Assembly (NCBI GenBank): GCA_964641255.1
Contig: CAZXMM010000001.1
Span: forward strand, 143,757 to 207,756
DNA from: an uncultured Gammaproteobacteria bacterium
GTDB lineage: Bacteria; Patescibacteriota; Microgenomatia; JAMCZE01
Direction: 5' to 3'
DNA length: 64,000 bases
In this document: one piece after another, positions 1-57,245 of the stretch
Layout of the letters: the number at the start of each line of letters is the position of its first letter
Numbering within the stretch: the first letter of the stretch is position 1
Program-made: the position numbers and the translations under genes
The notes under the pieces: model-generated
The model's database searches: none
What the model was told of the DNA's origin: nothing
The model's input: only the letters and a program-made list of their open reading frames with translations

Positions 1-100
1 ATGATCAGATTAGCCTTGGGACCTGTAACTTTGACCGGAATAATAGGACGACGAATAGTTCTGGTGGCAGCCGGGTAAGGAGTCTTTTTGAACGGGAAGA

Positions 101-7622: not shown

Positions 7623-8333
7623 ATGTCAGCCGAGCAAATAAAGGTACTTCTAGATAAGGGTGTTCAGGCCCGAGAGGCTGGCGACTATATAACTGGGTTA
7701 CAGGATATTCAGAGAGCCTTCACTGATTCAATAGGTTTAGATGATCAGAGTAGGATAGTTGAATCGGGTAATCAATTATCTATTCAATTACGTCTTCTCG
7801 CGGGAAGAAGCAGTAGGTCTGGTAACAAAGATGAGGCCACCAGATTTAGTAACGAATCATTGGCGGTCTATAACAAATTGGAAGAACTGGGATTATTAAA
7901 CCTCCAAGATCCTAACATAGCTCGTAATTGGGCCCATTCCTTATTGTATGCAGGCAAATACGAAGAGGCGGTCAGGGCTTTGGAGCAATCAGCTAGGATA
8001 CAAACAAATCAGGCTGCTCAAGGTGATGAAATGTGCCACCTTGCATCAGCTAAACTAATTCAGGGAGATATTAATGGAGCCACAGATCTCGTTGATAAGG
8101 GAACCAAACTGATACAGGACAATAATGGGTCAAATATTTGGCTAACCTTTGGCTACATGACTCTTGCAACCCTGCTTGCTAAAAAAGCTGAGTTCACTAG
8201 GACCAGCGCTATTTTACGGGAGGCGTTAGTAATTGCTGAAGAGAATGGCCTAATGGTTGGTGAGGAGGAGATAAAATACTTGCTGACACTCCCGCCAGCC
8301 GAAGTCAATGTTCTAAAAGCCGTGGGAATTTAA
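7623..8333 (+). CDS. hypothetical helical-repeat (TPR-like) protein
   Basis: 236 aa, alpha-helical repeat composition, no catalytic motif. Confidence 0.35.
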   Translation: MSAEQIKVLLDKGVQAREAGDYITGLQDIQRAFTDSIGLDDQSRIVESGNQLSIQLRLLAGRSSRSGNKDEATRFSNESLAVYNKLEELGLLNLQDPNIARNWAHSLLYAGKYEEAVRALEQSARIQTNQAAQGDEMCHLASAKLIQGDINGATDLVDKGTKLIQDNNGSNIWLTFGYMTLATLLAKKAEFTRTSAILREALVIAEENGLMVGEEEIKYLLTLPPAEVNVLKAVGI

Positions 8334-41740: not shown

Positions 41741-43573
41741 TCAGGGTATAGATGCCGTAATGAGCTGGCGCTCCTCTTTTAGCTGGGCACCCTCATTTAA
41801 GAGCTCGGTTAGTTGTTGCTGTAATTGTTCGTTGTCCCCATCCCTTTTGATTTGCTCTCTTAGTAAATCTTGTTTTCTTTGAAGTGACAACTGCTTGATA
41901 TCCCAGGCCTTTTTTTGCACCTCCTCAAGGACTAAAGCTTCGTCTTCTATGTTGATATCAATTTCTTTGAGAAACAGCCGGTCAACAGTATCAATAAGCT
42001 CGGGAGGGACGAAATTGATAAAAGTTTTAATATCAAATCTTTGGGTTGGTAGAGTGACATCAGATTTGGGATTGGCTACCAAGGAGAGTAGCAGCTGATA
42101 GATTTTCCCCAAGCCTGGGTCGGTGAAATCTTCTACAAGTAGCCGGGGAGCGATTAGGAGTAGATAGTCCTCAGGTTTGGGTGATTGCAAGAGTAGTTCC
42201 AATAAGTATTCCTGAGATAGTTCTAACTGAGTGAGTTTTTTCTTGAAGTCAGTTGCCGGTGGCGCGATTTGTGTTGGTGTAGGCAACTGTTTTTTGCGCC
42301 AGTCCTTAAATAACTGTCCCTCAACGTCACTTTCCCTGACACCTAATTCTTCAGCTAGTCGTTTTACATAATGGTTTTTGACGACCAGGTTATCAATGGG
42401 AGCCAGAAAACGAGCGACGTCACTGATAATTTTCTTCGCGCCTTCTGCGGTTTTGGAGTCACTTTTAGTTAGCGCCGAGTCAATAACAAAGTCATAAAAG
42501 TTCCCCGCTTCTTTAACTGCCTTATGCCATAGGGCTGGGTCTTTTTTTATCAGCTCATCGGGATCCTTGCCTTCCTTAAAGGAGACGACTTTAATGCCTA
42601 GCCCTGCCTGGTCGGCGATTTCTATTCCCCGGTGGGCGGCAGCGTCGCCGGCAAAGTCAGCGTCAAGTGATAAGTAAATCACCTCAGTGTAGCGTCTTAA
42701 CAGGTTTACTTGGCCCAAGGTCAGGGCCGAGCCTTTGATGGCGACTACGTTGCGCACGCCAGCTTGATAGGAAGCGATAGCATCGATTTCTCCCTCTACC
42801 ACCACAGCGAAGCCACTTTTTTTAATCTCTTCTTTGGTGACATCGAGTCCGTAAAGAGTATTACCTTTTGTGTAGGCCGGGGTTTCGGCAGTGTTAATAT
42901 ATTTGGCTTCTTTTGCCTCTGGATCAAGTAGTCTGCCGGCAAATCCCACTACACTACCATAATGGTCAAAAAGGGTAAAAATCACTCGGCCTCGAAAGCG
43001 GTCAAAAATATTGCCAATACTTGATTTTGAGACTACACCAGCTTGCAAAAGGTCGGCATCACTATAACCTTTTTTGCGCAGAAAATTAGTTAGGGAATTC
43101 CAGGAATTGGGCGCAAATCCTAACTTAAACAGTTTAATCGAGGAATCACTAATGCGGCGCTCCTTAAAATAATTACGGCCTATTTGTCCCACCGGGTGGG
43201 TAGTAAGAATAAAATGAAAATATTCCGCAGCCAAGTGATTAATCTCAAGGACCTTTTCTTTAATTTCGCTTTGTTTACTGCTTTGAAAACTGGTAGATAC
43301 CGGTACCCCGGTGCGTTTGGCTAAAATCTTGACTGCCTCGGAAAACTCGATGTTTTCCAGACGCATCAGGAAACGAAAGATATCTCCCCCATCCTGACAA
43401 CCGCCGAAACAGTGCCAAATTTGTCGCTCAGCCGAGACAACAAAACTAGGAGTTTTTTCGCTATGGAAGGGGCACAACCCTTTAAAATTTGCCCCAGTTT
43501 TTTTTAGGGGGACATACTCTGAGATTAGGGTGACAATATCCAGGCGTTTTTTTATCTCTTCAAGATCGGTCAT
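41741..43573 (-). CDS. dnaG: DNA primase
   Basis: zinc finger CPFHSEKTPSF...WHCFGCQ, TOPRIM VVVEGEIDAIAS...D. Confidence 0.9.
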   Translation of the reverse strand: MTDLEEIKKRLDIVTLISEYVPLKKTGANFKGLCPFHSEKTPSFVVSAERQIWHCFGGCQDGGDIFRFLMRLENIEFSEAVKILAKRTGVPVSTSFQSSKQSEIKEKVLEINHLAAEYFHFILTTHPVGQIGRNYFKERRISDSSIKLFKLGFAPNSWNSLTNFLRKKGYSDADLLQAGVVSKSSIGNIFDRFRGRVIFTLFDHYGSVVGFAGRLLDPEAKEAKYINTAETPAYTKGNTLYGLDVTKEEIKKSGFAVVVEGEIDAIASYQAGVRNVVAIKGSALTLGQVNLLRRYTEVIYLSLDADFAGDAAAHRGIEIADQAGLGIKVVSFKEGKDPDELIKKDPALWHKAVKEAGNFYDFVIDSALTKSDSKTAEGAKKIISDVARFLAPIDNLVVKNHYVKRLAEELGVRESDVEGQLFKDWRKKQLPTPTQIAPPATDFKKKLTQLELSQEYLLELLLQSPKPEDYLLLIAPRLLVEDFTDPGLGKIYQLLLSLVANPKSDVTLPTQRFDIKTFINFVPPELIDTVDRLFLKEIDINIEDEALVLEEVQKKAWDIKQLSLQRKQDLLREQIKRDGDNEQLQQQLTELLNEGAQLKEERQLITASIP

Positions 43574-43624
43574 AGCTTAGGAGCAGTAAAGCGATAATAC
43601 CACGGTGGGTGTATACTTAGGTAT

Positions 43625-44065
43625 ATGGTTGGAAAATTTCCCCCGGTAATTTTTCTCTACGGCGCGTTCCTGATTTCTTGGCTGGCGATGCTCGGCAGTC
43701 TGTTTTTTAGTGAGATTTGGCACTACCCACCCTGCGTACTTTGCTGGTATCAACGGATTTGCATGTATCCCTTAGTAGTCATTCTGGCTGTGGGTATTTG
43801 GCGAAAGAACAAGGAAATTCACCTCTACACTCTGCCCTTGGCCCTAATCGGTCTCCTAATCGGTGTCTACCACAACCTTCTTTACTACCGGCTCATTCCC
43901 GAGGCGATCGCTCCCTGTGTGGCGGGGATTTCCTGCACTACTAAATTTATTGAATGGTTCGGTTTTATTACTATTCCCCTTCTTTCTTTACTAGGGTTTG
44001 TTGCCCTGACCTTTTGTCTTCTGGTGTACTGGTGGGTAGTGGCAAAGAAGAAAACAGTCAAGTAG
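43625..44065 (+). CDS. disulfide bond formation protein B (DsbB/BdbC family)
   Basis: PCVLCWYQRICMYPL motif and 4 TM helices. Confidence 0.7.
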   Translation: MVGKFPPVIFLYGAFLISWLAMLGSLFFSEIWHYPPCVLCWYQRICMYPLVVILAVGIWRKNKEIHLYTLPLALIGLLIGVYHNLLYYRLIPEAIAPCVAGISCTTKFIEWFGFITIPLLSLLGFVALTFCLLVYWWVVAKKKTVK

Positions 44066-44076
44066 CGCTAAGTTAG

Positions 44077-44161
44077 CGGAGGGGGCGAGATTCGAACTCG
44101 CGGTATCTTGCGACACGGCGGTTTAGTAAACCGCTGCACTAGGCCACTATGCGACCCCTCC
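44077..44161 (-). tRNA. type-II (long variable arm) tRNA-Ser-like gene with anticodon loop UUACUAA (apparent anticodon ACU)
   Basis: hand-folded 85-nt cloverleaf: acceptor GGAGGGG/CCCCTCC, D-stem GCA/TGC, anticodon stem GCGGT/ACCGC, variable hairpin GTGTC-GCAA-GATAC, T-arm GCGAG-TTCGAAT-CTCGC. Confidence 0.6.
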
Positions 44162-44940
44162 TATTTATTTCGTTCGTGTCTGACAAACAGAAATGTTCCC
44201 ACAACTATAAACAGAGTTCCGGTAATTACCACGACCGCGATATCAATCATTGGGCTAAAAAGTACTGTTCTAGAATAATATGGTGTACCGAAGTAATAGA
44301 TACTGCGTAGCAAATCAACTGCGTAGGTCATGGGGGCAATCCGAGAAGCAATAAAGATGGGTAGGGGAAGATTGTGAATGGGATTAAATACCCCGGCCAG
44401 AAAGAATTGGGGGAAAAGCAGGAAGGGGAATATCTGATTGGCGGATTTTTGGTCGGACAGAGTGGACATGACAATAACCCCAAAAGCGCCGCCAAAGAGG
44501 GCCACTAAGAGGAAAAAGGGTAGCAGTCGGATCAGCGCTATCCAGTCCAGGGGGACACCTATTAAAATTCCCAGAGCAATGACTCCCACGATTTGGAGTA
44601 AGGAAACGCAGGTTTCCCCCAGAATCTTACCCAGTAAAATAGCATAGCGGGAGATAGGAGCAATAAACATTTCTTGAGCGAAGTCGTTTTGTCTATCCTC
44701 CACGAGAGAAATAATTCCTCCAGCTGTTGACTGAAACAAGGTCTGAGCAATCACCCCAATAAAAACGAATTCTAAAAAGTTATAGCCTAAATTCTCGCCC
44801 AAATTAGCCTGAAGACTGGTTCCTAAGACGCCAATGAAGATAGCTGGAAACACTAGACTAAAGGCGATTCGAGTTCTATCCCGCAACAGTTTGATTACGT
44901 CACGGCCGGCGATGGTAATAATGGCGTTAAGTAGTTTCAT
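44161..44940 (-). CDS. ABC-2 type transporter permease
   Basis: 259 aa, 6 TM helices, adjacent to ABC ATPase. Confidence 0.75.
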   Translation of the reverse strand: MKLLNAIITIAGRDVIKLLRDRTRIAFSLVFPAIFIGVLGTSLQANLGENLGYNFLEFVFIGVIAQTLFQSTAGGIISLVEDRQNDFAQEMFIAPISRYAILLGKILGETCVSLLQIVGVIALGILIGVPLDWIALIRLLPFFLLVALFGGAFGVIVMSTLSDQKSANQIFPFLLFPQFFLAGVFNPIHNLPLPIFIASRIAPMTYAVDLLRSIYYFGTPYYSRTVLFSPMIDIAVVVITGTLFIVVGTFLFVRHERNK

Positions 44941-45886
44941 GGTGCTGTCTGATTATTTGCACGTAAGCACTTTCCAGAGTGGGACTATGAATTTCCAAGT
45001 GGGTCAGTTGGGTTTTAAGGCCAGCTATAATTTCCTGTCCGGTATTTTCTCCGGTATTAATTTTAAATGGTCCATTCCCTTCAAAAGTCAGCCCTTTTTG
45101 GTTTAACTCTTTTGTTAAGCCCATTCGATCCTTGGCATCAAGCACAAGGTGGTTTTGGATCAGGGTTTTTTTGATTTCACTAGGAGTGCCTTTGGCTACA
45201 ATGGTCCCTTCATCCATAATGCAGACATAATCTGAAGCCTCAGCCTCCTCTAGGTAATGGGTAGTTAAGAAAATTGTTATCTCTTGGGACTTACGAATAT
45301 CTTGAAGATATTTCCAAAGATTTTGCCGGCTGATTGGGTCGAGTCCGGTGGTTGGTTCGTCGAGAAATAACACTTTGGGTTCGTGCATCAGGCTACGGAT
45401 AATCTCTAACTTACGTTTCATTCCCCCAGAGAGAGTTTTGACCGGCTTATGGAGATCCTTTTCCAGCCCTAGGACTCTGGCTAATTCGGCCACCTTGTCT
45501 TTATAGGCTTGGGGCATGAGGGTGTAGCTAGGCAGATAGGGATAGAGATTATAGAGATTAGCGTGGAAGCGAATATTTTCTTCGGCGGTTAGATTGAGAT
45601 CTAAACTGGGATTTTGAAAAATTACGCCAATTTGTTGTCTGACAGCGGCGGGATTTTTACTGACATCGTAGCCGGCGATAGTTACAGTGCCTGCACTGGG
45701 GGAAAGGATAGTTGTTAAGATAGAAATAGTCGTGGTCTTTCCGGCTCCGTTGGGGCCCAGCAGGGAAAAGAATGAACCCTCCTCGACATAAAAAGAAACC
45801 GCCTTAACGGCATCAGCAGGCGCCTTTTTGTAACGCTTGGTTAAATTAGTGACTTCGATAATTCGAGATTTAACTTTCTTGGCCAT
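44927..45886 (-). CDS. ABC transporter ATP-binding protein
   Basis: Walker A GPNGAGKTTT, signature LSGGMKRKL, Walker B LFLDEPT. Confidence 0.9.
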   Translation of the reverse strand: MAKKVKSRIIEVTNLTKRYKKAPADAVKAVSFYVEEGSFFSLLGPNGAGKTTTISILTTILSPSAGTVTIAGYDVSKNPAAVRQQIGVIFQNPSLDLNLTAEENIRFHANLYNLYPYLPSYTLMPQAYKDKVAELARVLGLEKDLHKPVKTLSGGMKRKLEIIRSLMHEPKVLFLDEPTTGLDPISRQNLWKYLQDIRKSQEITIFLTTHYLEEAEASDYVCIMDEGTIVAKGTPSEIKKTLIQNHLVLDAKDRMGLTKELNQKGLTFEGNGPFKINTGENTGQEIIAGLKTQLTHLEIHSPTLESAYVQIIRQHHETT

Positions 45887-45924
45887 TGGCTACTTTCTCA
45901 TTGCTAAAAATAACTACTAGCTAG

Positions 45925-46114
45925 GCGGTATTCATTGTACAAAATTCGAACCTTTTTTGAAACCAATCCTGACGAAGAAATCTGAACTGCACCCCGCCAC
46001 AATATTTCTGGGGCAAAGGAGGCGGGGTGATGGACTCGCCCGCGCGGAGGAGGGGTCTGGGGAGGAATCCGCGCGGGCTTCGGCTTTTTGTTTTGGCGAA
46101 ATTCTGGCGGGCTA
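45925..46114. repeat. IR-A left copy (190 bp, GC-rich, internal hairpin GCCCGCGCGG/CCGCGCGGGC)
   Basis: base-for-base reverse complement of 48866..49055, verified over the full length by hand. Confidence 0.85.
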
Positions 46115-47941
46115 TTAAAACTTGCCTTCTATATTCTCAAACAATTTGGTTAAATTATCTTTCGTCGTTGTGTCCAAATTGATTGAGGTTCCATTTTGGC
46201 AAGTTTCTAAAAATTTCTTTGCGAGCAAAACCTTATCCAGTTTACTCTTTTTTACATACTCCGAATTAGATTCCGTATAAGTTTTGCTCGTATCATTCAA
46301 CACAAATTCTTGAAAATTAGCCGGCGAGAAAATATCCTCCACACTCCCTGCGGTACTTAGCACAGCAAGAACTAAATCTTTTGTAACTAACCAATTGTCT
46401 TTTAGATTTTTCTCGCCATCCTTTTTCCCTTTGTCGTTGTCGTAGAGATATACAACCTTTCCACCCCAACCATGCAATATAGTACCTACAACTGGCATAT
46501 TTCCAGCTCCACCACCGAAAATAAAGTTCACGCTGTCTTTGCTAAGGATTTTCTTAAACGCATTTAGATAGTAGAGATCGGAAGCTCCCTCAACTACAAT
46601 ATTATTTACTTTATCTAAAGCCGTAATTCCTACACTTAATTCCAATCCAATGGCAGTCATAATAGGAGTTAAGGTTTCTTTATCCGCCAAAGCGTGAACT
46701 TTATTTTCTATTTTCGTTCCTGCTTTTTTTGTACGATGAATCAATCTAATTCGATTTAGCTTGTCGGCTTCCAAAAGATATGGCGAATGCGTTGAAAATA
46801 CTAACTGGACTTCTTTCGCTGAATCTTCAAGTTTGCTCAAAATATCTTCTTGAGCTTTGGCGTGGAGAAATAAGCCTGGTTCGTCAATCAAAATAATGTT
46901 TGGGACATCCTCATTTGCTCTTGCTGACACTTTTATATAAAACGCGAGGTGCCATTGTCTACCTTTACTTCGCAAACTTGGCTCATACGGGTAGCCGTCT
47001 TCTTGAATCCAAAACTGGAGGTCTTGAGAATCCCAATCAACGCTCAAACTTGAAACATCTTGCGTCCAAAACTTTTTGTAATCGTCATTGAGGTTGATAT
47101 TTATATCTGTTTTATGTTTCTGCTTATCGCGAGCAGTAGAAGTTTTGATCGTGGCAACATTCAAATCGCTGATTACTGACAAATCCTTAATCCATTCATT
47201 GGTTTCAAGTTCCGCAAAAGGTATCTTGTTTGGAAAAATATCTTCAAACGAATTAAAGAACACGAAATTTGGAATCCATCGTTTTAGAGCTTCTAAAAAC
47301 TTTTCCTCTATTGCAGTTAAATTTTCAAGATTTTGAATTTCTGTTTCTATCTCGGCTAAAAGTTTTGGCAAATTCTCACGATCTTTTTCATCTATTTGTG
47401 GGATATTTGGTGTAGTAGCAGTTTTGAAAGCAGTAAGAAGGGTTTTCTCATTCGTTAAATCAGAAAATTCAAAATCAAAGAAAGTTCCTCCTAACTGTGG
47501 ATATTTCGTGTGCAATGCTTTTACTTTGCCCCACTTGTCCTTGATTGATTTTTGAATTTTCTCAATTTCCTTTGCTCCAAAAAGGTCATTCTTCAGAGTA
47601 TCTTCTCCAAAAGTGTAGGTATCAGGAAAAGTTTTTATGATTTCGAGTTCAATATTGGCGATTGCTTTTTGGGTGCTACCTATCTCGGTTAAAACTTCTT
47701 TAACGGTATCTCTTTCAACGGTAAAAGTTATAGAGATTTCAGGTATCGCTTCTGGTGATTTAATAGGTTTAGCACTCTCTCTTATTTTTCCGTCCGTATC
47801 AAAATCCTCTAATGCTTCAAGAATAGAAGTTTTCCCAGATTCGTTTTTCCCAGCAAGAATGGTAATTGTATCCGTTAAATAGCAATCGCCGCTGTCGGTT
47901 ATGGACTTAAAATTTTTAATTCTAAATTTCTTAAGTTTCAT
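46115..47941 (-). CDS. OLD-family nuclease: N-terminal ABC-type ATPase + C-terminal TOPRIM domain
   Basis: Walker A LAGKNESGKTSILEAL, Walker B ILIDEPGLFLH, FSTHSP; C-terminal TOPRIM-like NIVVEGASDLYYL ... YLYDNDKGKKDGE. Confidence 0.7.
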   Translation of the reverse strand: MKLKKFRIKNFKSITDSGDCYLTDTITILAGKNESGKTSILEALEDFDTDGKIRESAKPIKSPEAIPEISITFTVERDTVKEVLTEIGSTQKAIANIELEIIKTFPDTYTFGEDTLKNDLFGAKEIEKIQKSIKDKWGKVKALHTKYPQLGGTFFDFEFSDLTNEKTLLTAFKTATTPNIPQIDEKDRENLPKLLAEIETEIQNLENLTAIEEKFLEALKRWIPNFVFFNSFEDIFPNKIPFAELETNEWIKDLSVISDLNVATIKTSTARDKQKHKTDININLNDDYKKFWTQDVSSLSVDWDSQDLQFWIQEDGYPYEPSLRSKGRQWHLAFYIKVSARANEDVPNIILIDEPGLFLHAKAQEDILSKLEDSAKEVQLVFSTHSPYLLEADKLNRIRLIHRTKKAGTKIENKVHALADKETLTPIMTAIGLELSVGITALDKVNNIVVEGASDLYYLNAFKKILSKDSVNFIFGGGAGNMPVVGTILHGWGGKVVYLYDNDKGKKDGEKNLKDNWLVTKDLVLAVLSTAGSVEDIFSPANFQEFVLNDTSKTYTESNSEYVKKSKLDKVLLAKKFLETCQNGTSINLDTTTKDNLTKLFENIEGKF

Positions 47942-47948
47942 AATCTTT

Positions 47949-48560
47949 TTAAGTATTTCTTGCCTTTCTTTCTTGAATACTTTTTAGTAGGAAGGGTGCG
48001 GCTTCTTCCTGCGTTTTACCCGATTTGATGCTATTACAAATCAGACAACTTGTTTTTAAGTTTTCTTTTGTATGCTTTCCACCCTTGTATTGAGGAGTTA
48101 GATGGTCAAGCGTTGCGTTTTCTGTAGTTACTTTCTCTCCACAATAAAAACAAGTGTATTTATCACGCTCAAAGATTTCTTTTCGTTTTTCTGCGTTGGT
48201 AAAATAATCTTCTTCAATAGGGTCAGCAGTGATTGAAAGTTTTTCTTTTACCAATGGAATTTCTTCTGGCAGAAAAATACTATAGAGCGTTCCCTCGCGG
48301 TTAGTGTCGCCAATCTTAATACACGATTTTTCTTCTAGTCCAGATACAAGTTTTGTAATATGAGCGTAATTCGATTTTTCACCGCGAGAAGAACCAAGAT
48401 TGTCAGCAATAGTCCTTTTACCAATTCGTATTTCTGCTGAACCATTTTTTATATACGAATTACGCAAAAAGAAAATGTAAAGTCCCGCTTCGTATGGAGT
48501 TAAGGATGGTAAGAGTAGATCAGTATATTGCTCAATAATTTTTTGTAAATCTTCTTTCAT
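47949..48560 (-). CDS. HNH endonuclease domain protein with N-terminal wHTH-like region
   Basis: C-terminus CFYCGEKV...LDHLTPQYKGGKHTKENLKTSCLICNSIK HNH motif. Confidence 0.7.
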   Translation of the reverse strand: MKEDLQKIIEQYTDLLLPSLTPYEAGLYIFFLRNSYIKNGSAEIRIGKRTIADNLGSSRGEKSNYAHITKLVSGLEEKSCIKIGDTNREGTLYSIFLPEEIPLVKEKLSITADPIEEDYFTNAEKRKEIFERDKYTCFYCGEKVTTENATLDHLTPQYKGGKHTKENLKTSCLICNSIKSGKTQEEAAPFLLKSIQERKARNT

Positions 48561-48563
48561 AAT

Positions 48564-48761
48564 TTATTTCACTATTTCCTCCATCGGAACGCCTAGCGAC
48601 TTGGCGATTTTTTGAATTGTTTGAACGCTTGGCTTGGTAACGACACCACCCTCAATTTTTGTAAGGGTAGAGTATTTGATATTGGCTTTTTTCGCCAAGT
48701 CGTCTTGCGTTAATCCTTGTTTTGCTCGTATCCTCTTTATGTTTTCAGATATAGTTGCCAT
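48564..48761 (-). CDS. XRE-family helix-turn-helix transcriptional regulator
   Basis: 65 aa; IKRIRAKQGLTQDDLAKKANIKYSTLTKIE HTH_3 pattern. Confidence 0.75.
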   Translation of the reverse strand: MATISENIKRIRAKQGLTQDDLAKKANIKYSTLTKIEGGVVTKPSVQTIQKIAKSLGVPMEEIVK

Positions 48762-48865
48762 AGTATGCTACTTTTGATAGTATATAAATATGAGCCATTA
48801 CTTTCTTTGCTCACAAAACAAGGATAGCAAAAATCAGAGATTTTTTCAAGGTGTATTTTTTATTT

Positions 48866-49055
48866 TAGCCCGCCAGAATTTCGCCAAAACAAAAAGCCGA
48901 AGCCCGCGCGGATTCCTCCCCAGACCCCTCCTCCGCGCGGGCGAGTCCATCACCCCGCCTCCTTTGCCCCAGAAATATTGTGGCGGGGTGCAGTTCAGAT
49001 TTCTTCGTCAGGATTGGTTTCAAAAAAGGTTCGAATTTTGTACAATGAATACCGC
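48866..49055. repeat. IR-A right copy (inverted, 190/190 identical to 45925..46114)
   Basis: see IR-A left. Confidence 0.85.
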
Positions 49056-49057
49056 AA

Positions 49058-49171
49058 ATTTTCGAAAAGGGTTTCGGAACCAAAAATATGGTCGGCGCGA
49101 AGCGCCGACTGTTCTGCATTCCCCCCACAAAATCCTGATTCTGCAAGGATTCGCCACGCTCCGCGTGGCTC
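49058..49171. repeat. IR-B left copy (114 bp)
   Basis: exact reverse complement of 50601..50714; with one mismatch the match extends 6 nt further on each side. Confidence 0.85.
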
Positions 49172-49198
49172 CTCGTTTGCCAATACAATTTCAATTTT

Positions 49199-50815
49199 AT
49201 GAATAATCACACCAGAAAGTTTTTTATATACACTCGCAAATCAACCGATACAGAGGATCGGCAAGTGAGAAGCATTTCAGACCAACTGGCCGAACTAAAA
49301 CAATTGGCGATAAAAGAGGATATTGATGTCGTTGATATTTTCGTGGAAAAACAAACCGCTAAAGCTCCGGGTCGGCCAGTATTTAATGAAATGCTTCTCC
49401 GTATCGAGCAAGGTGAGGCAAATGGAATTTTAGCTTGGCACCCCGACAGGTTAGCGAGGAATAGTGTTGACGGTGGAAAAGTTATTTACTTGCTCGATAC
49501 GGGAAAGATTGCCGAGCTGAAATTTCCAACTTTCTGGTGTGATCCGACACCGCAAGGCAAATTCATGCTCTCAATCGCTTTTTCGCAATCCAAGTATTAT
49601 GTTGATAACCTGTCGGAAAATATCAAGCGTGGTCATCGCAACAAAGTGAAAGACGGAATATGGCCTCAAATGTCTCCGCTCGGATATGTAAATGTGAAAG
49701 GTGCTGGAATTATTCCCGATATTGAAATTGCCAAACTGATTAAAAAGACATTTGAGGCATATTCGTCTGGGTCTTTCACTTTGCGACAACTCCGGGACAA
49801 GTTTAATGGACTTGGATTGAAGCGAAAAAGCGGAAAGGAACTTGCGGTGTCGAACTATCAGCAAATCCTCAAAAATCCTATCTACACAGGACTAATGAGA
49901 TATAACGGAGAGATTTTTGAGGGGAAGCACGAACCGATTATCACAAAGAAACTTTTTGATTCCGTTCAAGAAGTGATGATGAAAAAGAGCAAACCACATT
50001 CCAAAGGCCTAAAACCATTTTTATACAGAGGATTTTTCCGTTGCGGAGAATGTGGATGTTTCATCACTACCGAAACGCAGAAAGGTCATAATTATTTGAG
50101 GTGTACCAAACGGAAAAATCCTTGTGAACAAAAATATGTTCGTGAGGAAATCATCACTTCTAAAATCAGAACGGAATTACAAAAAGTTTCTTTGCCACTC
50201 GATTGGGCAAATTGGATGATTGTCGAAAACGAGAAAGATCGGCAATCAGAAACCCAATCGAGTGAGATTTTTTCTCAAAAAACAAAAGACGAAATTTCTC
50301 TTTTGGATTCCAAAATTGAGAAGCTGATGAACGCATATCTTGAAAACGCACTTTCGCTAGACGAATATCGTGATTCTAAAAACAAGTTGGTAAGCTCAAA
50401 ACAGCTTCTCAAAGAGAAATTATCAGCTTTTGAGAAAAAATCTCATAATCGGTTCGAACTTGCTGATAGATTCATAAAATCCAGTATAAACAATATGGAA
50501 TTGGCAAACGAGGGAATTCCCGAAAAGATTTTTCGGGAATTCAAAAAAGTCGGTTCGAACTTTCAAATTAAGGACCGAACCGTACTTTTTGAGCCACGCG
50601 GAGCGTGGCGAATCCTTGCAGAATCAGGATTTTGTGGGGGGAATGCAGAACAGTCGGCGCTTCGCGCCGACCATATTTTTGGTTCCGAAACCCTTTTCGA
50701 AAATCTGCGGAGGAGGCGAGATTCGAACTCGCGCGAGCTTGCGCTCAATTGCTTTCCAAGCAATCGGAATGGGCCACTATCCGACTCCTCCAACTTTAGA
50801 ATTCTATCAAATTGA
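49199..50815 (+). CDS. large serine recombinase (resolvase catalytic domain + recombinase domain + zinc ribbon + coiled coil)
   Basis: N-terminus YTRKSTDTEDRQVRSISDQ (catalytic Ser context), zinc ribbon CGECGC...C...C. The annotated 3' end runs through IR-B and into tRNA-Ser without a stop, so the functional C-terminus probably lies before about 50600. Confidence 0.8.
   Translation: MNNHTRKFFIYTRKSTDTEDRQVRSISDQLAELKQLAIKEDIDVVDIFVEKQTAKAPGRPVFNEMLLRIEQGEANGILAWHPDRLARNSVDGGKVIYLLDTGKIAELKFPTFWCDPTPQGKFMLSIAFSQSKYYVDNLSENIKRGHRNKVKDGIWPQMSPLGYVNVKGAGIIPDIEIAKLIKKTFEAYSSGSFTLRQLRDKFNGLGLKRKSGKELAVSNYQQILKNPIYTGLMRYNGEIFEGKHEPIITKKLFDSVQEVMMKKSKPHSKGLKPFLYRGFFRCGECGCFITTETQKGHNYLRCTKRKNPCEQKYVREEIITSKIRTELQKVSLPLDWANWMIVENEKDRQSETQSSEIFSQKTKDEISLLDSKIEKLMNAYLENALSLDEYRDSKNKLVSSKQLLKEKLSAFEKKSHNRFELADRFIKSSINNMELANEGIPEKIFREFKKVGSNFQIKDRTVLFEPRGAWRILAESGFCGGNAEQSALRADHIFGSETLFENLRRRRDSNSRELALNCFPSNRNGPLSDSSNFRILSN
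50601..50714. repeat. IR-B right copy (inverted), inside the 3' end of the recombinase ORF and abutting the tRNA-Ser(GGA) 3' end
   Basis: see IR-B left. Confidence 0.85.
50718..50801 (-). tRNA. tRNA-Ser (anticodon GGA)
   Basis: 84-nt type-II cloverleaf; anticodon loop TTGGAAA; T-arm GCGAG-TTCGAAT-CTCGC. Confidence 0.85.
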
Positions 50816-50830
50816 TGATACAATTGAGCT

Positions 50831-51235
50831 ATGAATGCAAAAGTTAATCATCTCCAGTTAAACATAGATTACAAAAATGCCCAATTCTATAAGGATCTAA
50901 TGGTGTTTCTTGGCTGGAAGGTGATTGGGGAGTGGGGTGACATTATGGGTTGGCAGGGCGAGGGGGAGGTGTCACTGTGGTTTAGCCAGAGTAAAAACGA
51001 GACGAAAAACGATCGTGACGGCCAGGGACTTAACCATGTAGGTCTTAAGGTGAAAGCAATTAGTGATGTTGACAAAGCCGCTAACTATTTAAAAGAGCAA
51101 GGGGTGGAGCTCCTCTATGGCACACCGCAGCATCGTCCCGATTTTACTCACAGTGAGGATACGACATACTACCAGGTCATGTTTGATTCTCCCGATAATA
51201 TCCTCTTCGAAATCATGTATACCGGCCCTAAGTAA
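50831..51235 (+). CDS. VOC (glyoxalase-fold) family protein
   Basis: 134 aa; beta-alpha-beta-beta-beta module pattern and HVGLKV motif. Confidence 0.5.
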   Translation: MNAKVNHLQLNIDYKNAQFYKDLMVFLGWKVIGEWGDIMGWQGEGEVSLWFSQSKNETKNDRDGQGLNHVGLKVKAISDVDKAANYLKEQGVELLYGTPQHRPDFTHSEDTTYYQVMFDSPDNILFEIMYTGPK

Positions 51236-51650
51236 AGGTGCTGGCTATATCTAGTAATTTTCGGTCATTAGCATGAGTTAACTTGGCTTTGGCTTCATTG
51301 GGGGGTAGCCAGAAAATGGCGGCGATTTCTTTCGGCTGGGGAGCGTCCACTCCGGAGACGTATTCCATTAAAAAATAGGTTACGATCTTAAAAATCTTTT
51401 CTCCTTTAAAGGTATAAAAAATTTTACTCTCACCCAGTTTCTTAAGCACTCGCGCCGTAATTCCTGTTTCCTCTCTCACCTCACGAATTGCTGCGTCGAT
51501 CGCTTTCTCACCGGGACCTATAAGGCCCTTAGGAAAGCCAAAGCGAATCTTGGGAAAGTCAGTACTGGGTTTGGGCTGAATCAGGAGAAATAGAGAACTA
51601 CCCCCCTGTTTTTTAAAGACTACTCCACCAGCTGAAAATTGTCTAACCAT
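51228..51650 (-). CDS. NUDIX hydrolase
   Basis: NUDIX box GFPKGLIGPGEKAIDAAIREVREETGI; start taken at the internal Met (MVRQFSAGG) so as not to overlap tRNA-Arg. Confidence 0.75.
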   Translation of the reverse strand: MVRQFSAGGVVFKKQGGSSLFLLIQPKPSTDFPKIRFGFPKGLIGPGEKAIDAAIREVREETGITARVLKKLGESKIFYTFKGEKIFKIVTYFLMEYVSGVDAPQPKEIAAIFWLPPNEAKAKLTHANDRKLLDIASTFT

Positions 51651-51667
51651 ACTTAGTACCCACAGTG

Positions 51668-51739
51668 TGCTCCTAAGAGGAATCGAACCTCCATCACAGC
51701 CTTCGGAGGGCCGTACTCTATCCATTGAGCTATAGGAGC
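51668..51739 (-). tRNA. tRNA-Arg (anticodon CCG)
   Basis: 72-nt cloverleaf; anticodon loop CTCCGAA. Confidence 0.8.
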
Positions 51740-51745
51740 AAGCGG

Positions 51746-51827
51746 CGGAGGGTAGAGGAGTCGAACCTCTTAGTCCTTGCGGACATTAGTTTTCAAGACT
51801 AACGCATTACCGCCCTGCCCACCCTCC
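51746..51827 (-). tRNA. tRNA-Ser (anticodon TGA)
   Basis: 82-nt type-II cloverleaf; anticodon loop CTTGAAA. Confidence 0.85.
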
Positions 51828-51834
51828 ACCATGG

Positions 51835-51906
51835 CGCTCCCAGACAGAATCGAACTGTCATCACTAGGTCCGCAACCTAGTACTCTATCCATTAAGCTAT
51901 GGGAGC
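51835..51906 (-). tRNA. tRNA-Arg (anticodon reads GCG)
   Basis: 72-nt cloverleaf nearly identical to the Arg-CCG gene except for the anticodon arm; loop TTGCGGA. Confidence 0.7.
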
Positions 51907-51941
51907 AGGCTCTATTTGGCTTACCAATTATAACGGTTTAG

Positions 51942-52571
51942 CTAGGAGGGTGCCACCTCGGTTGGAGTGGGGGGAGAAGTGGGTACGGTTTTTTCCGCTT
52001 TGGTAGCGAGCATTTTTTCCATAGGAAATTTTTTAGCTAACCAATCGGTCAATTTCTCGGTGGCGGATTTTTGCCAAACTTCAATAAAGGGAAGAAACTG
52101 GGCAAGGTGGTCCCTAATTACACCTTCGTCCTCACGGTGAATTAAAAAAATTAGTTGACCAAAGACGTTTCTGTAGCCCACATGCAGTAGCCGCTGATCA
52201 CCTTTATCAGAAAACCAGAACACTCCCAGCTCAATCCAGAGGTAGGTGTGGCCTTGAGAGATTATCCCCTGGGTAGTTATTCGGTGTTCCACTTCTTCTG
52301 GTTGGACTTTGGAAAGAGCAAACAGTAAAAAAACAGTCGCCCAAGATAAAACAATTAGCAACCATTCCTGGAAAAAGGCAAAAATGATGGATAACAAAAG
52401 GGCGATGGTAGCGATTGTTGTAAACGCCCCTTTGGGGTACTGCCTTTCCGGGTGGGAGAGAGACTTCCAGACAAAGAGGTCGCGAACGCCTCGTTCGGCC
52501 TTGTTAGGTCGTTGCCAAATGGAGTCACTTTCTGTTTCTGGTGTGGGACTTGGGGCAGAATTTTCCATCAA
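51942..52571 (-). CDS. hypothetical membrane protein
   Basis: 209 aa, two central TM helices, Pro/Thr-rich N-terminus. Confidence 0.35.
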   Translation of the reverse strand: MMENSAPSPTPETESDSIWQRPNKAERGVRDLFVWKSLSHPERQYPKGAFTTIATIALLLSIIFAFFQEWLLIVLSWATVFLLFALSKVQPEEVEHRITTQGIISQGHTYLWIELGVFWFSDKGDQRLLHVGYRNVFGQLIFLIHREDEGVIRDHLAQFLPFIEVWQKSATEKLTDWLAKKFPMEKMLATKAEKTVPTSPPTPTEVAPS

Positions 52572-57155: not shown

Positions 57156-57245
57156 TGGCGGAGGAGACAGGATTCGAACCTGCGCGAGCCTTGCGGCTCA
57201 GAGAGTTAGCAACCCTCCGCAATGGACCAACTATGCGACTCCTCC
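57156..57245 (-). tRNA. tRNA-Ser (anticodon GCT), 3' CCA encoded
   Basis: 90-nt type-II cloverleaf; anticodon loop TTGCTAA. Confidence 0.85.

Follow-up and report, generated by a model that had tools for sequence, protein, structure and literature searches.

The window, i.e. the whole 64,000-nucleotide stretch of contig CAZXMM010000001.1 that was analysed, contains a recombinase gene which lies between long inverted repeats and beside a serine tRNA gene, tRNA-Ser(GGA). The gene is part of a 4.8-kb integrative element, positions 45925-50710, inserted exactly at the 3' end of the tRNA, at G73/C74. The order in the window is a', the genes of an Old/PtuA-like ATPase, an HNH nuclease and an XRE-type regulator, the junction a.b, the recombinase, b' and the tRNA-Ser, where a' and a are the arms of one inverted repeat, IR-A, and b and b' those of another, IR-B. 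Judged from its domains the recombinase is a large serine recombinase (LSR), or serine integrase. Our interpretation of the whole, which we hold to be rather probable, is that of an integrative element whose LSR open reading frame (ORF) runs across the element's own attachment (att) core, and whose LSR segment can be inverted. The features on which this is built are:

45925-46114, unstranded: arm a', left arm of IR-A and outer left end of the element; its tip GCGG (45925-45928) abuts host DNA as an attL-type junction
45926-45985, plus strand: detached 3' tail of the LSR, RYSLYKIRTFFETNPDEEI and a stop, in frame with the LSR if b' is joined to the a' tip
45990-46096, plus strand: terminator-like 3' region with GC-rich hairpins at 45990-46029 and 46038-46078, the second followed by TTCGGCTTTTTGTTTTGG
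48866-49055, unstranded: arm a, right arm of IR-A, which holds the inverted spare copy of tail, stop and terminator-like hairpins
48995-49054, minus strand: inverted copy of the tail, within arm a
49052-49171, unstranded: arm b, left arm of IR-B, kept in relatives; the LSR start codon follows after 27 nt
49052-49055, unstranded: internal core CCGC, the meeting point of the a and b tips; it reads as the reverse complement of the attP expected if b' and a' were joined
49199-50590, plus strand: unique LSR coding part, residues 1-464, with Resolvase, Recombinase, zinc ribbon and helical insert
50591-50710, unstranded: arm b', right arm of IR-B, ORF codons 465-504; its tip is a candidate P-type half-site
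50653-50671, plus strand: conserved b' hairpin, GTCGGCGC-TTC-GCGCCGAC and then CATATTTTTG, with a mirror copy on the minus strand at 49109-49091
50707-50710, unstranded: core GCGG, the attR-type junction of b' tip and tRNA-Ser
50708-50791, minus strand: tRNA-Ser(GGA), intact (ARAGORN; Rfam 52.9 bits), the B-type half of the attachment site
50711-50815, plus strand: fortuitous ORF extension, codons 505-538 and stop, antisense through the tRNA gene

The LSR ORF (49199-50815, plus strand) encodes 538 amino acids (aa) and has its stop codon at 50813-50815; an exact-protein look-up of this sequence returned no record. Pfam finds a resolvase domain (PF00239, 1.1e-18, residues 9-154), a Recombinase domain (PF07508, 1.8e-15) and a zinc ribbon (PF13408, Zn_ribbon_recom, 2.6e-7). 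The Y-x-R-x-S serine motif (IYTRKS, residues 10-15) is shared by all homologues in the alignment, and the cysteines C282, C285, C302 and C309 are invariant or nearly so there. Long helices are predicted at residues 333-433 in a low-confidence model. The closest solved structure is that of the SPbeta integrase, a distant match with an E value of 2.4e-7 over the N-terminal half.

A protein search gave thousands of LSRs, and the best 120 clusters were taken for comparison. They are 75-94% identical to the window LSR, 482-647 aa long, and mostly unnamed or from Patescibacteria. For the survey of loci one genome per species was scanned and 80 related loci were fetched. In 42 of these, from many projects and assemblers, the LSR gene lies between copies of a repeat of about 120 nt, as a rule 97-100% identical. 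A second pair (190-275 nt) brackets 1.5-6.3 kb of cargo directly upstream in 19 of the loci. The layout of the family, found in more than 40 independent Patescibacteria assemblies, is host DNA, a', an XRE gene with variable cargo, a.b, LSR, b' and tRNA-Ser. The outer tip of b' abuts the 3' end of a tRNA-Ser in 48 loci, with the anticodons GGA, TGA, CGA, GCT and ACT. The XRE gene is the only conserved cargo gene, present in 20 of 21 cargo modules on the a-proximal side (a'-proximal in L036).

IR-B consists of 49052-49171 and 50591-50710, 120 nt of which 119 are complementary. The sole mismatch is 49057/50705 and the identity ends on both sides of each arm; such a repeat is far beyond chance. 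IR-A, 45925-46114 and 48866-49055, is adjacent to it, 190 nt long and 100% complementary, and its right arm is contiguous with the left arm of IR-B, with an overlap of 4 nt, CCGC (49052-49055). No other repeats of at least 30 nt at comparable identity were found within the 64 kb. An earlier note on this DNA had described inverted repeats on both sides of the serine recombinase gene, which is borne out, and had set the IR-B arms at 49058 onwards and at 50601-50714, which had to be shifted by about 6-10 nt. It had also stated that the ORF crosses the right IR-B arm into the tRNA, and there is indeed no stop before 50815. The ATG lies 27 nt past the left arm, codon 465 is the first and codon 504 the last inside the right arm, and codons 505-538 continue beyond it, antisense through tRNA-Ser(GGA), whose 3' end (50707/50708) has 3-4 nt in common with the outer part of the arm.

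The tips of the arms identify the probable recombination sites. All 84 distinct arm tips carry GCGG without variation, and it is the only block that is common to all junction types. Beyond it one of three sequences follows: tRNA-Ser, an a-type tip (GCGGTATTCATTGTACAAAATTCGAAC...), or, at the distal end, unrelated host DNA. The a-type tip adjoins b-type tips in most related loci, and the distal host flank is often preceded by TGG, the encoded CCA of the original tRNA end. When positions are counted from the GC of GCGG as the centre, TTCGAA is found at +19..24 in 25 a tips and TTCnGAA at +18..24 in 55 b tips, with the shared GAA ending at +24 in both, while TTCGAA is found at +14..19 in 55 tRNA-Ser flanks, 5 bp nearer the core than in the a tips. 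The accepted way to tell LSR half-sites apart is the position of the DBD2 motif, which in attB is nearer the centre by about 5 bp than it is in attP (PMC11722253). Since the shift matches this rule, the a and b tips behave as P-type half-sites and the T-arm of the tRNA as a B-type half-site; the other B half, the host flank, is not conserved. Two loci from the same aquifer project, L085 and L086, are 99.88% identical over the 1616 nt from b through the LSR to b' and diverge exactly after GCGG, where one enters an a arm and the other a tRNA-Ser. The predicted crossover is within GCGG 50707-50710, at G73/C74 of the tRNA. LSRs cut with a 2-nt stagger at a central dinucleotide, and the comparison of junctions narrows its place down to these 4 nt. 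In L081 a related tRNA-Ser(GGA) is unoccupied, and its own terminator follows instead of b'.

Because the b' and a tips are P-type halves which meet at a shared core, the internal a.b junction is, by its sequence, a complete and inverted copy of the attP that joining of the element ends would create. The element thus carries arm b twice, once as b' next to the tRNA and once inverted upstream of the LSR, fused to inverted a, and this is why IR-B exists.

When b' is joined to the a arm in the window sequence, the computed protein is 522 aa long and ends ...FENLRYSLYKIRTFFETNPDEEI, which is the same length as the ORFs of L011 and L014. In the LSR frame the a-type tips encode R-[YC]-x-L-[DY]-[KE]-[IV]-R-x-[YF]-F-[EG]-x-N-P-..., a tail which is conserved in 38 a tips, with the first in-frame stop at codon 17-21 in 31 of 32. 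Beyond the first 24 nt, in codons 9-16, the diversity of the tail by codon position is 0.18/0.27/0.51, highest at the third position, and the synonymous fraction is 0.305 in the LSR frame as compared to 0.03-0.22 in the other five frames. The RNA of 45990-46096, behind the stop, folds into two long stems at -49 kcal/mol. The z-score is only -1.3 as the region is GC-rich, and the terminator scan made no call here as the loop is too long; equivalent hairpins are seen in L085. The arm itself is exactly 120 nt, or 40 codons, in 81 of the 84 distinct arms, and stops in the LSR frame occur in 2 of 81 arms, as compared to 44 and 31 of 81 in the other two sense frames, while 81% of shuffled arms have a stop. 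An open arm of 40 codons and a coding-like tail with a fixed stop imply that the native ORF, of about 522 aa, runs through the arm and across the att core and ends in the a arm, behind a tail of 16-20 codons. In the window it is the tRNA, and not an a arm, to which the b' tip is joined, and integration replaced the tail by 34 arbitrary antisense-tRNA codons. Among the best 120 homologues 12 have a tail encoded by the a arm (a tail), 79 have a tRNA tail, and 15 end at a contig end at the arm tip.

The absence of a stop in the window is not by itself a sign of coding, and that argument was rejected: all three plus-strand frames are open through b' here. The avoidance of stops can only be used when the 81 arm variants are taken together. 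Stops are also scarce in two antisense frames of the arm, where 6 and 11 of the 81 have one. On the other side of the gene, the ORF of some homologues (P0075, P0096) is called from further upstream, so that an N-terminal extension would run from arm b into the LSR start, comparable to 49052-49202 (plus strand) in the window. The aligned homologues follow the window LSR through the part encoded by the arm (FEPRGAW...GGN...LRAD...), with several invariant residues, up to about residue 504-510. Past the arm their tails read RRxRDSNxR, which is the T-arm of the tRNA in antisense, and then diverge and differ in length. It had been proposed that the last 70 codons or so are probably not real protein. 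This holds for the 34 codons 505-538, which are fortuitous antisense of the tRNA, but not for the 40 codons of the arm, which are present in every homologue.

The arrangement is different in some of the relatives. In six of about 54 related loci (L011, L014, L060, L069, L072 and L082) the tRNA-Ser abuts arm b, so that tRNA and LSR point the same way. The inversion in these concerns the LSR segment alone, relative to the tRNA, the a arm and the cargo. Where the 3' end can be read (L011, L014 and L082) the ORF is complete, 517-522 aa, and ends in an a tail. In L036 it is the cargo segment that is inverted, with the XRE gene next to a'. Tandem arrays were found in L010 (529-8509), L046 (398-8447) and L083 (1-5188; L083/L084). 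They hold different LSR lineages, each with its own arm type of 110-156 nt, and the distal LSR reads into the a arm of the next unit, where it regains a stop. The proteins with an a tail are scattered among nearest neighbours with tRNA tails, and the core of one of them, P0062, is 100% identical to that of P0043, which has a tRNA tail. The earlier note had suggested that the recombinase gene is the segment between the inverted repeats and could be inverted relative to the outside, and the six relatives do show the opposite orientation; of its further options, that of a 3' end defined only in one orientation fits best, as the ORFs of flipped and tandem copies end in an a tail.

It is likely, going by the junctions, that the element moves by recombination of attP and attB at G73/C74 of the tRNA-Ser, catalysed by its own LSR, and the empty site would read ...CTAGCTAG|GCGGAGGAGG... 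The pair of arms would then allow the 1.4-kb LSR segment to invert, with the LSR itself or homologous recombination of the two arms as the agent. After an inversion b' would again be joined to an a arm, the spare, inverted one, which would restore the 522-aa ORF, the stop and the terminator-like hairpin, and the LSR would also lie downstream of the tRNA-Ser in the same direction. In a flipped window the tRNA, the LSR, the XRE gene, the cargo and the ABC operon of the host would all be co-directional on the minus strand, with the terminator-like hairpin after the LSR. The orientation in the window would be the truncated, resting state, and the flipped orientation the complete one. A flip of the LSR segment as a switch is thus plausible from the arrangement of the sites. 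A bolder version, which we regard as rather doubtful, is a self-flipping integrase cassette that controls directionality without a recombination directionality factor (RDF): the LSR would invert its own segment by means of the inverted attP and the P.B junction at the tRNA, and toggle between a complete 522-aa form driven from the tRNA promoter and a truncated, silenced form, the latter being the state in the window. The junctions of the flip product are identical in sequence to the substrates, so the reaction could repeat in either direction. A different substrate for integration, a dumbbell of single-stranded DNA folded on the arms, was rejected, since a double-strand exchange would leave hairpin-capped chromosome ends.

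Several observations weigh against this interpretation of an att-crossing ORF on an invertible segment. Flipping driven by the LSR would be non-canonical, because canonical LSRs do not recombine attP with attR, and short-read assemblies may mis-phase the orientation across perfect repeats of 190 nt. No circular form was found, and the contigs of the a-tail proteins P0085, P0093, P0062 and P0012 have no terminal overlaps; among them L082 is an integrated copy that is flipped, L083/L084 and L085 are tandem arrays, and L090 is a decayed junction. A scan of metagenomes with the 34-mer of tRNA-Ser(GGA) gave no empty site of the same species, and matched one contig of another genome, where the site is unoccupied and has different neighbours. 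In IMG/VR there was no relative of the LSR and no evidence of a phage origin. About 70% of the copies in the database are without the tail, the half-site of the b tip is only loosely conserved, and the arms are clearly diverged (74-92% identity) in about a quarter of the loci, so arm identity is not required. Matches to a promoter consensus are at the level of shuffled sequence, 12 as compared to 11.6 expected, and the b' hairpin with its T-rich tail, lying inside the ORF, could terminate transcripts before the tail is reached. The last 450 nt of the unique LSR coding sequence have a normal coding diversity by codon position (0.165/0.113/0.254), whereas that of arm b' is flat (0.252/0.247/0.272), with no codon periodicity, and the first 18 nt of the arm, a hairpin stem, are invariant, third codon positions included. 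The conservation of residues 465-504 is therefore mostly at the DNA level. The AlphaFold2 model, from an alignment of 31 sequences, is too poor to place the C-terminus, with a mean confidence (pLDDT) of 49.8; its last predicted strands, at low confidence, are 455-458 and 461-464.

It is conceivable, though rather unlikely, that the islands are not single elements and instead are chains of two kinds of cassettes joined at GCGG, where the LSR and its b arms form an autonomous cassette resembling an insertion sequence, with terminal inverted repeats of 120 nt and the LSR as transposase, and the cargo and its a arms form a separate, non-autonomous one. Each unique segment does have its own perfect pair of arms, and each is found either way round, as L014 and L082 show for the LSR and L036 for the cargo; one and the same LSR cassette is joined to different partners, and a lone LSR cassette is found in L002, with a tRNA-Ser on each side, and in L019, between host DNA and tRNA-Ser with no a arm. 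However, the order is fixed, with the LSR cassette always beside the tRNA and a strict alternation of a and b tips. An a tip against a tRNA was never seen among about 55 junctions, nor was a cargo cassette without an LSR cassette. Furthermore, the free circle of such a cassette would hold a perfect palindrome of 240 nt, and the coding signal of the tail ties the LSR to the a arm. The arms are also too widespread to be an assembly artefact, a fold-back or chimeric contig, although amplification chimeras can yield perfect inverted repeats and many related contigs break at the arms: the same architecture, with arm variants that covary, recurs in more than 40 loci, and these come from many different projects and assemblers. 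The companion idea of a phase switch of a neighbouring host gene, worked by a small invertase, meets an enzyme of more than 500 aa which is an LSR and not of the Hin/Gin type, and an element which is foreign DNA inserted at a tRNA end. The survey of related loci already contradicts both, and we give them hardly any credence.

A role of the arms mainly at the RNA level is improbable. The arms b and b' might pair in the mRNA, or the hairpin might terminate transcription before the stop, which would give non-stop or double-stranded LSR messages and a very low level of the enzyme, and any potential for inversion would be incidental. In the b' hairpin 4 of the 6 stem pairs show compensatory changes over a set of 40 arms, the stems of hairpin-1 of the arms do not vary even at third codon positions, a terminator-like call was made on both IR-B arms, facing outward, the arms fold better than shuffled sequences (z -2.6 and -3.9), and in 79 of 81 arms the LSR frame meets no stop ahead of the hairpin. 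Against this, the T-run that follows the hairpin is poorly kept, and several arm variants have a weak one or none; the stop avoidance and the exact 40 codons reach as far as the tip and the tail is coding-like, which argues that ribosomes read through; and the a arms and flipped loci would be left without an explanation. A search of 43500-52000 against Rfam 15 at E<=1 gave only tRNAs and no RNA family in the arms. Within our interpretation the b' hairpin could act as attenuation, as mRNA structure or as DNA structure. That the whole extension 465-538 would be a genuine, conserved protein domain is very improbable. The alignment of homologues to about residue 504-510 with several invariant residues speaks for it, but 465-504 lacks codon periodicity, past 504 there is only the antisense T-arm of whichever tRNA-Ser was hit, followed by divergence, with total lengths of 500-647 aa, and the pLDDT is about 25-30, although from a poor model. 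For residues 505-538 the idea is already contradicted.

The remaining genes of the element lie between the arms of IR-A:

46115-47941, minus strand: Old/AriA/PtuA-like AAA ATPase (Pfam AAA_15 2.5e-21; weak OLD-like_TOPRIM 0.0047; PADLOC Old 1.4e-27, AriA 6.6e-25)
47949-48560, minus strand: HNH nuclease, PtuB-like (Pfam HNH_5 4e-11; PADLOC PtuB 1.4e-6)
48564-48761, minus strand: XRE-type helix-turn-helix regulator, 65 aa (Pfam HTH_3 5e-17), divergent from the LSR

This cargo of 2.75 kb looks, by its domain matches, like a defence module of the Septu/OLD type. The GC content of the cargo segment is 34-39%, as compared to 44-47% in the flanks. Pfam, PADLOC and the comparison of cargos revealed no replication gene in it, and there is no tRNA fragment at the distal end. 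To the left of the element are host ABC transporter genes, with the ATPase starting at 45886, and to the right of it the tRNA is followed by a gene of the glyoxalase family. In one flipped element, L014, the cargo leader contains a (GA)n microsatellite of about 30 nt (7625-7655).

Some further observations concern the target sites. In addition to a normal tRNA-Ser(GCT) at 57156-57245, the window has a tRNA-Ser(ACT) with the anticodon loop TTACTAA at 44076-44161 (minus strand). This tRNA recurs in L006 (8498-8587), L015 (1786-1873), L052 (8491-8578) and L069 (6776-6865), and is also used as an insertion target; a serine tRNA with A34 is unusual in bacteria. A third class of sequence joined to b' (GCGGTGTACTCGGGTATGGTACCCGTGGGTGCAACCCTTGTAAGGGTATTTTAGCA...) was found in L021 (1673-1740) and L049 (about 1790-1860) and in the proteins P0004, P0008, P0027 and P0094. 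It is not an a-type arm, and Rfam finds no tRNA or family in it. Unrelated loci share it in conserved form, and it may represent a further target or type of arm. Rfam scans of the odd flanks in L007, L012, L021 and L049 gave nothing but tRNAs. Behind the b' tip of L004 (1586-1814) come 16 nt from the 3' end of a tRNA-Ser, GGAGGGAGTGAGATTC, then unrelated sequence and, about 140 nt on, a complete tRNA-Ser(TGA); the fragment is a displaced or decayed copy of the target. L002 (6778-8596) has the LSR segment and two arms between convergent tRNA-Ser genes (GGA and GCT) and no cargo, which suggests a chromosomal rearrangement between two tRNA-Ser loci via the internal attP. A comparable model of integrase-driven inversion is described for Thermococcales (PMC5495485).

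Nine loci (L004, L007, L012, L025, L029, L040, L045, L048 and L070) are filed under bins of Bdellovibrionales, Bacteroidota, Gammaproteobacteria or Lentisphaerae. Such names probably reflect mis-binning or mislabelling of short or repeat-ended contigs and not the host range. Many related contigs have one of their ends close to the arms, at about 20-300 nt or less, and the arm repeats are systematic break points in metagenome assemblies of the candidate phyla radiation (CPR).

The family apparently consists of widespread, small mobile elements of Patescibacteria which have not been described; we found no description in the literature, where the coverage of our search was incomplete, and this is absence of evidence only. 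With hundreds of closely related recombinase clusters in Paceibacteria, Nomurabacteria, Uhrbacteria, Levybacteria and others, it is a very common mobile element of the CPR, one that ferries defence genes, inserts at every kind of tRNA-Ser and explains many of the contig breaks in CPR bins. The internal attP looks live and may drive rearrangements between tRNA-Ser genes, as L002 suggests. A compact LSR with attP and attB that can be read from the sequence, attB being the last 25 bp or so of tRNA-Ser, is of interest for genome engineering, and the architecture raises the question of how a serine integrase is controlled without a separate directionality factor.

Compared to known LSRs (A118/LI, SPbeta SprA, Bxb1, phiC31) the window enzyme has the same set of Resolvase, Recombinase and zinc ribbon with a long helical insert, the same short att sites with two half-sites around a small core, the attB motif 5 bp nearer the centre, and site-specific integration. 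It differs in that the sequence is only distantly related, insertion is at the very 3' end of a tRNA-Ser of any kind, the gene has a second attP beside it, complete and inverted, the reading frame extends across the att core, arms of 120-275 nt take the place of about 25 bp, and no RDF candidate was recognised. In the SSV1-type integrases and in the integration-dependent immunity of mycobacteriophages attP is within a coding region, and integration alters the C-terminus and hence the activity or stability of the product. The family shares this logic of an ORF across the att core, but in logic only, since the enzyme class differs: those systems use tyrosine recombinases, and the gene split in mycobacteriophages is that of the repressor. 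To our knowledge they have no inverted spare copy from which the gene could be restored in situ. In Tn4451/Tn4453 the recombinase TnpX is an LSR whose expression depends on the joint of the circular form, as the joint creates a promoter, whereas the joint here would complete the 3' end of the ORF. We know of no long inverted repeats or tRNA target in Tn4451.

Segments that flip between inverted repeats with the crossover in an ORF, and so swap C-termini, are those of Mu (Gin, G segment), P1 (Cin), Hin and the R64 shufflon. These are worked by small serine invertases, or by the tyrosine recombinase Rci, at sites of about 26-34 bp in tail-fibre or pilin genes, whereas here the gene inside the invertible segment is that of the recombinase itself, and inversion by the enzyme is a proposal. 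Small serine invertases are about 190 aa with a C-terminal helix-turn-helix and sites of about 26 bp; the window enzyme has more than 500 aa, no match to HTH_7, and arms of 120 nt. The yeast 2-micron plasmid has FLP/FRT in inverted repeats of 599 bp and exists as both isomers; it is eukaryotic, its recombinase is a tyrosine recombinase, and it serves copy-number amplification. A circle of the joined ends would resemble it in geometry only, with two unique segments and two inverted repeats that hold the recombination site, but there is no replication gene here and a free circle was not observed. Tycheposons, 910 of 937 of which use tyrosine recombinases, duplicate a partial tRNA as att repeats and many of them have replication genes; no long inverted repeats are reported for them (bioRxiv 10.1101/2020.12.28.424599). 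The present elements are like them in being small and integrated at tRNA genes, with variable and often defence-related cargo and tandem arrays, and unlike them in having an LSR, no distal tRNA fragment and no replication gene, which places them outside the definition of tycheposons. What is unusual for an LSR element is the ORF across the att core, the long arms, the inverted attP beside the gene, and the potential of the recombinase to swap its own C-terminus by inversion.

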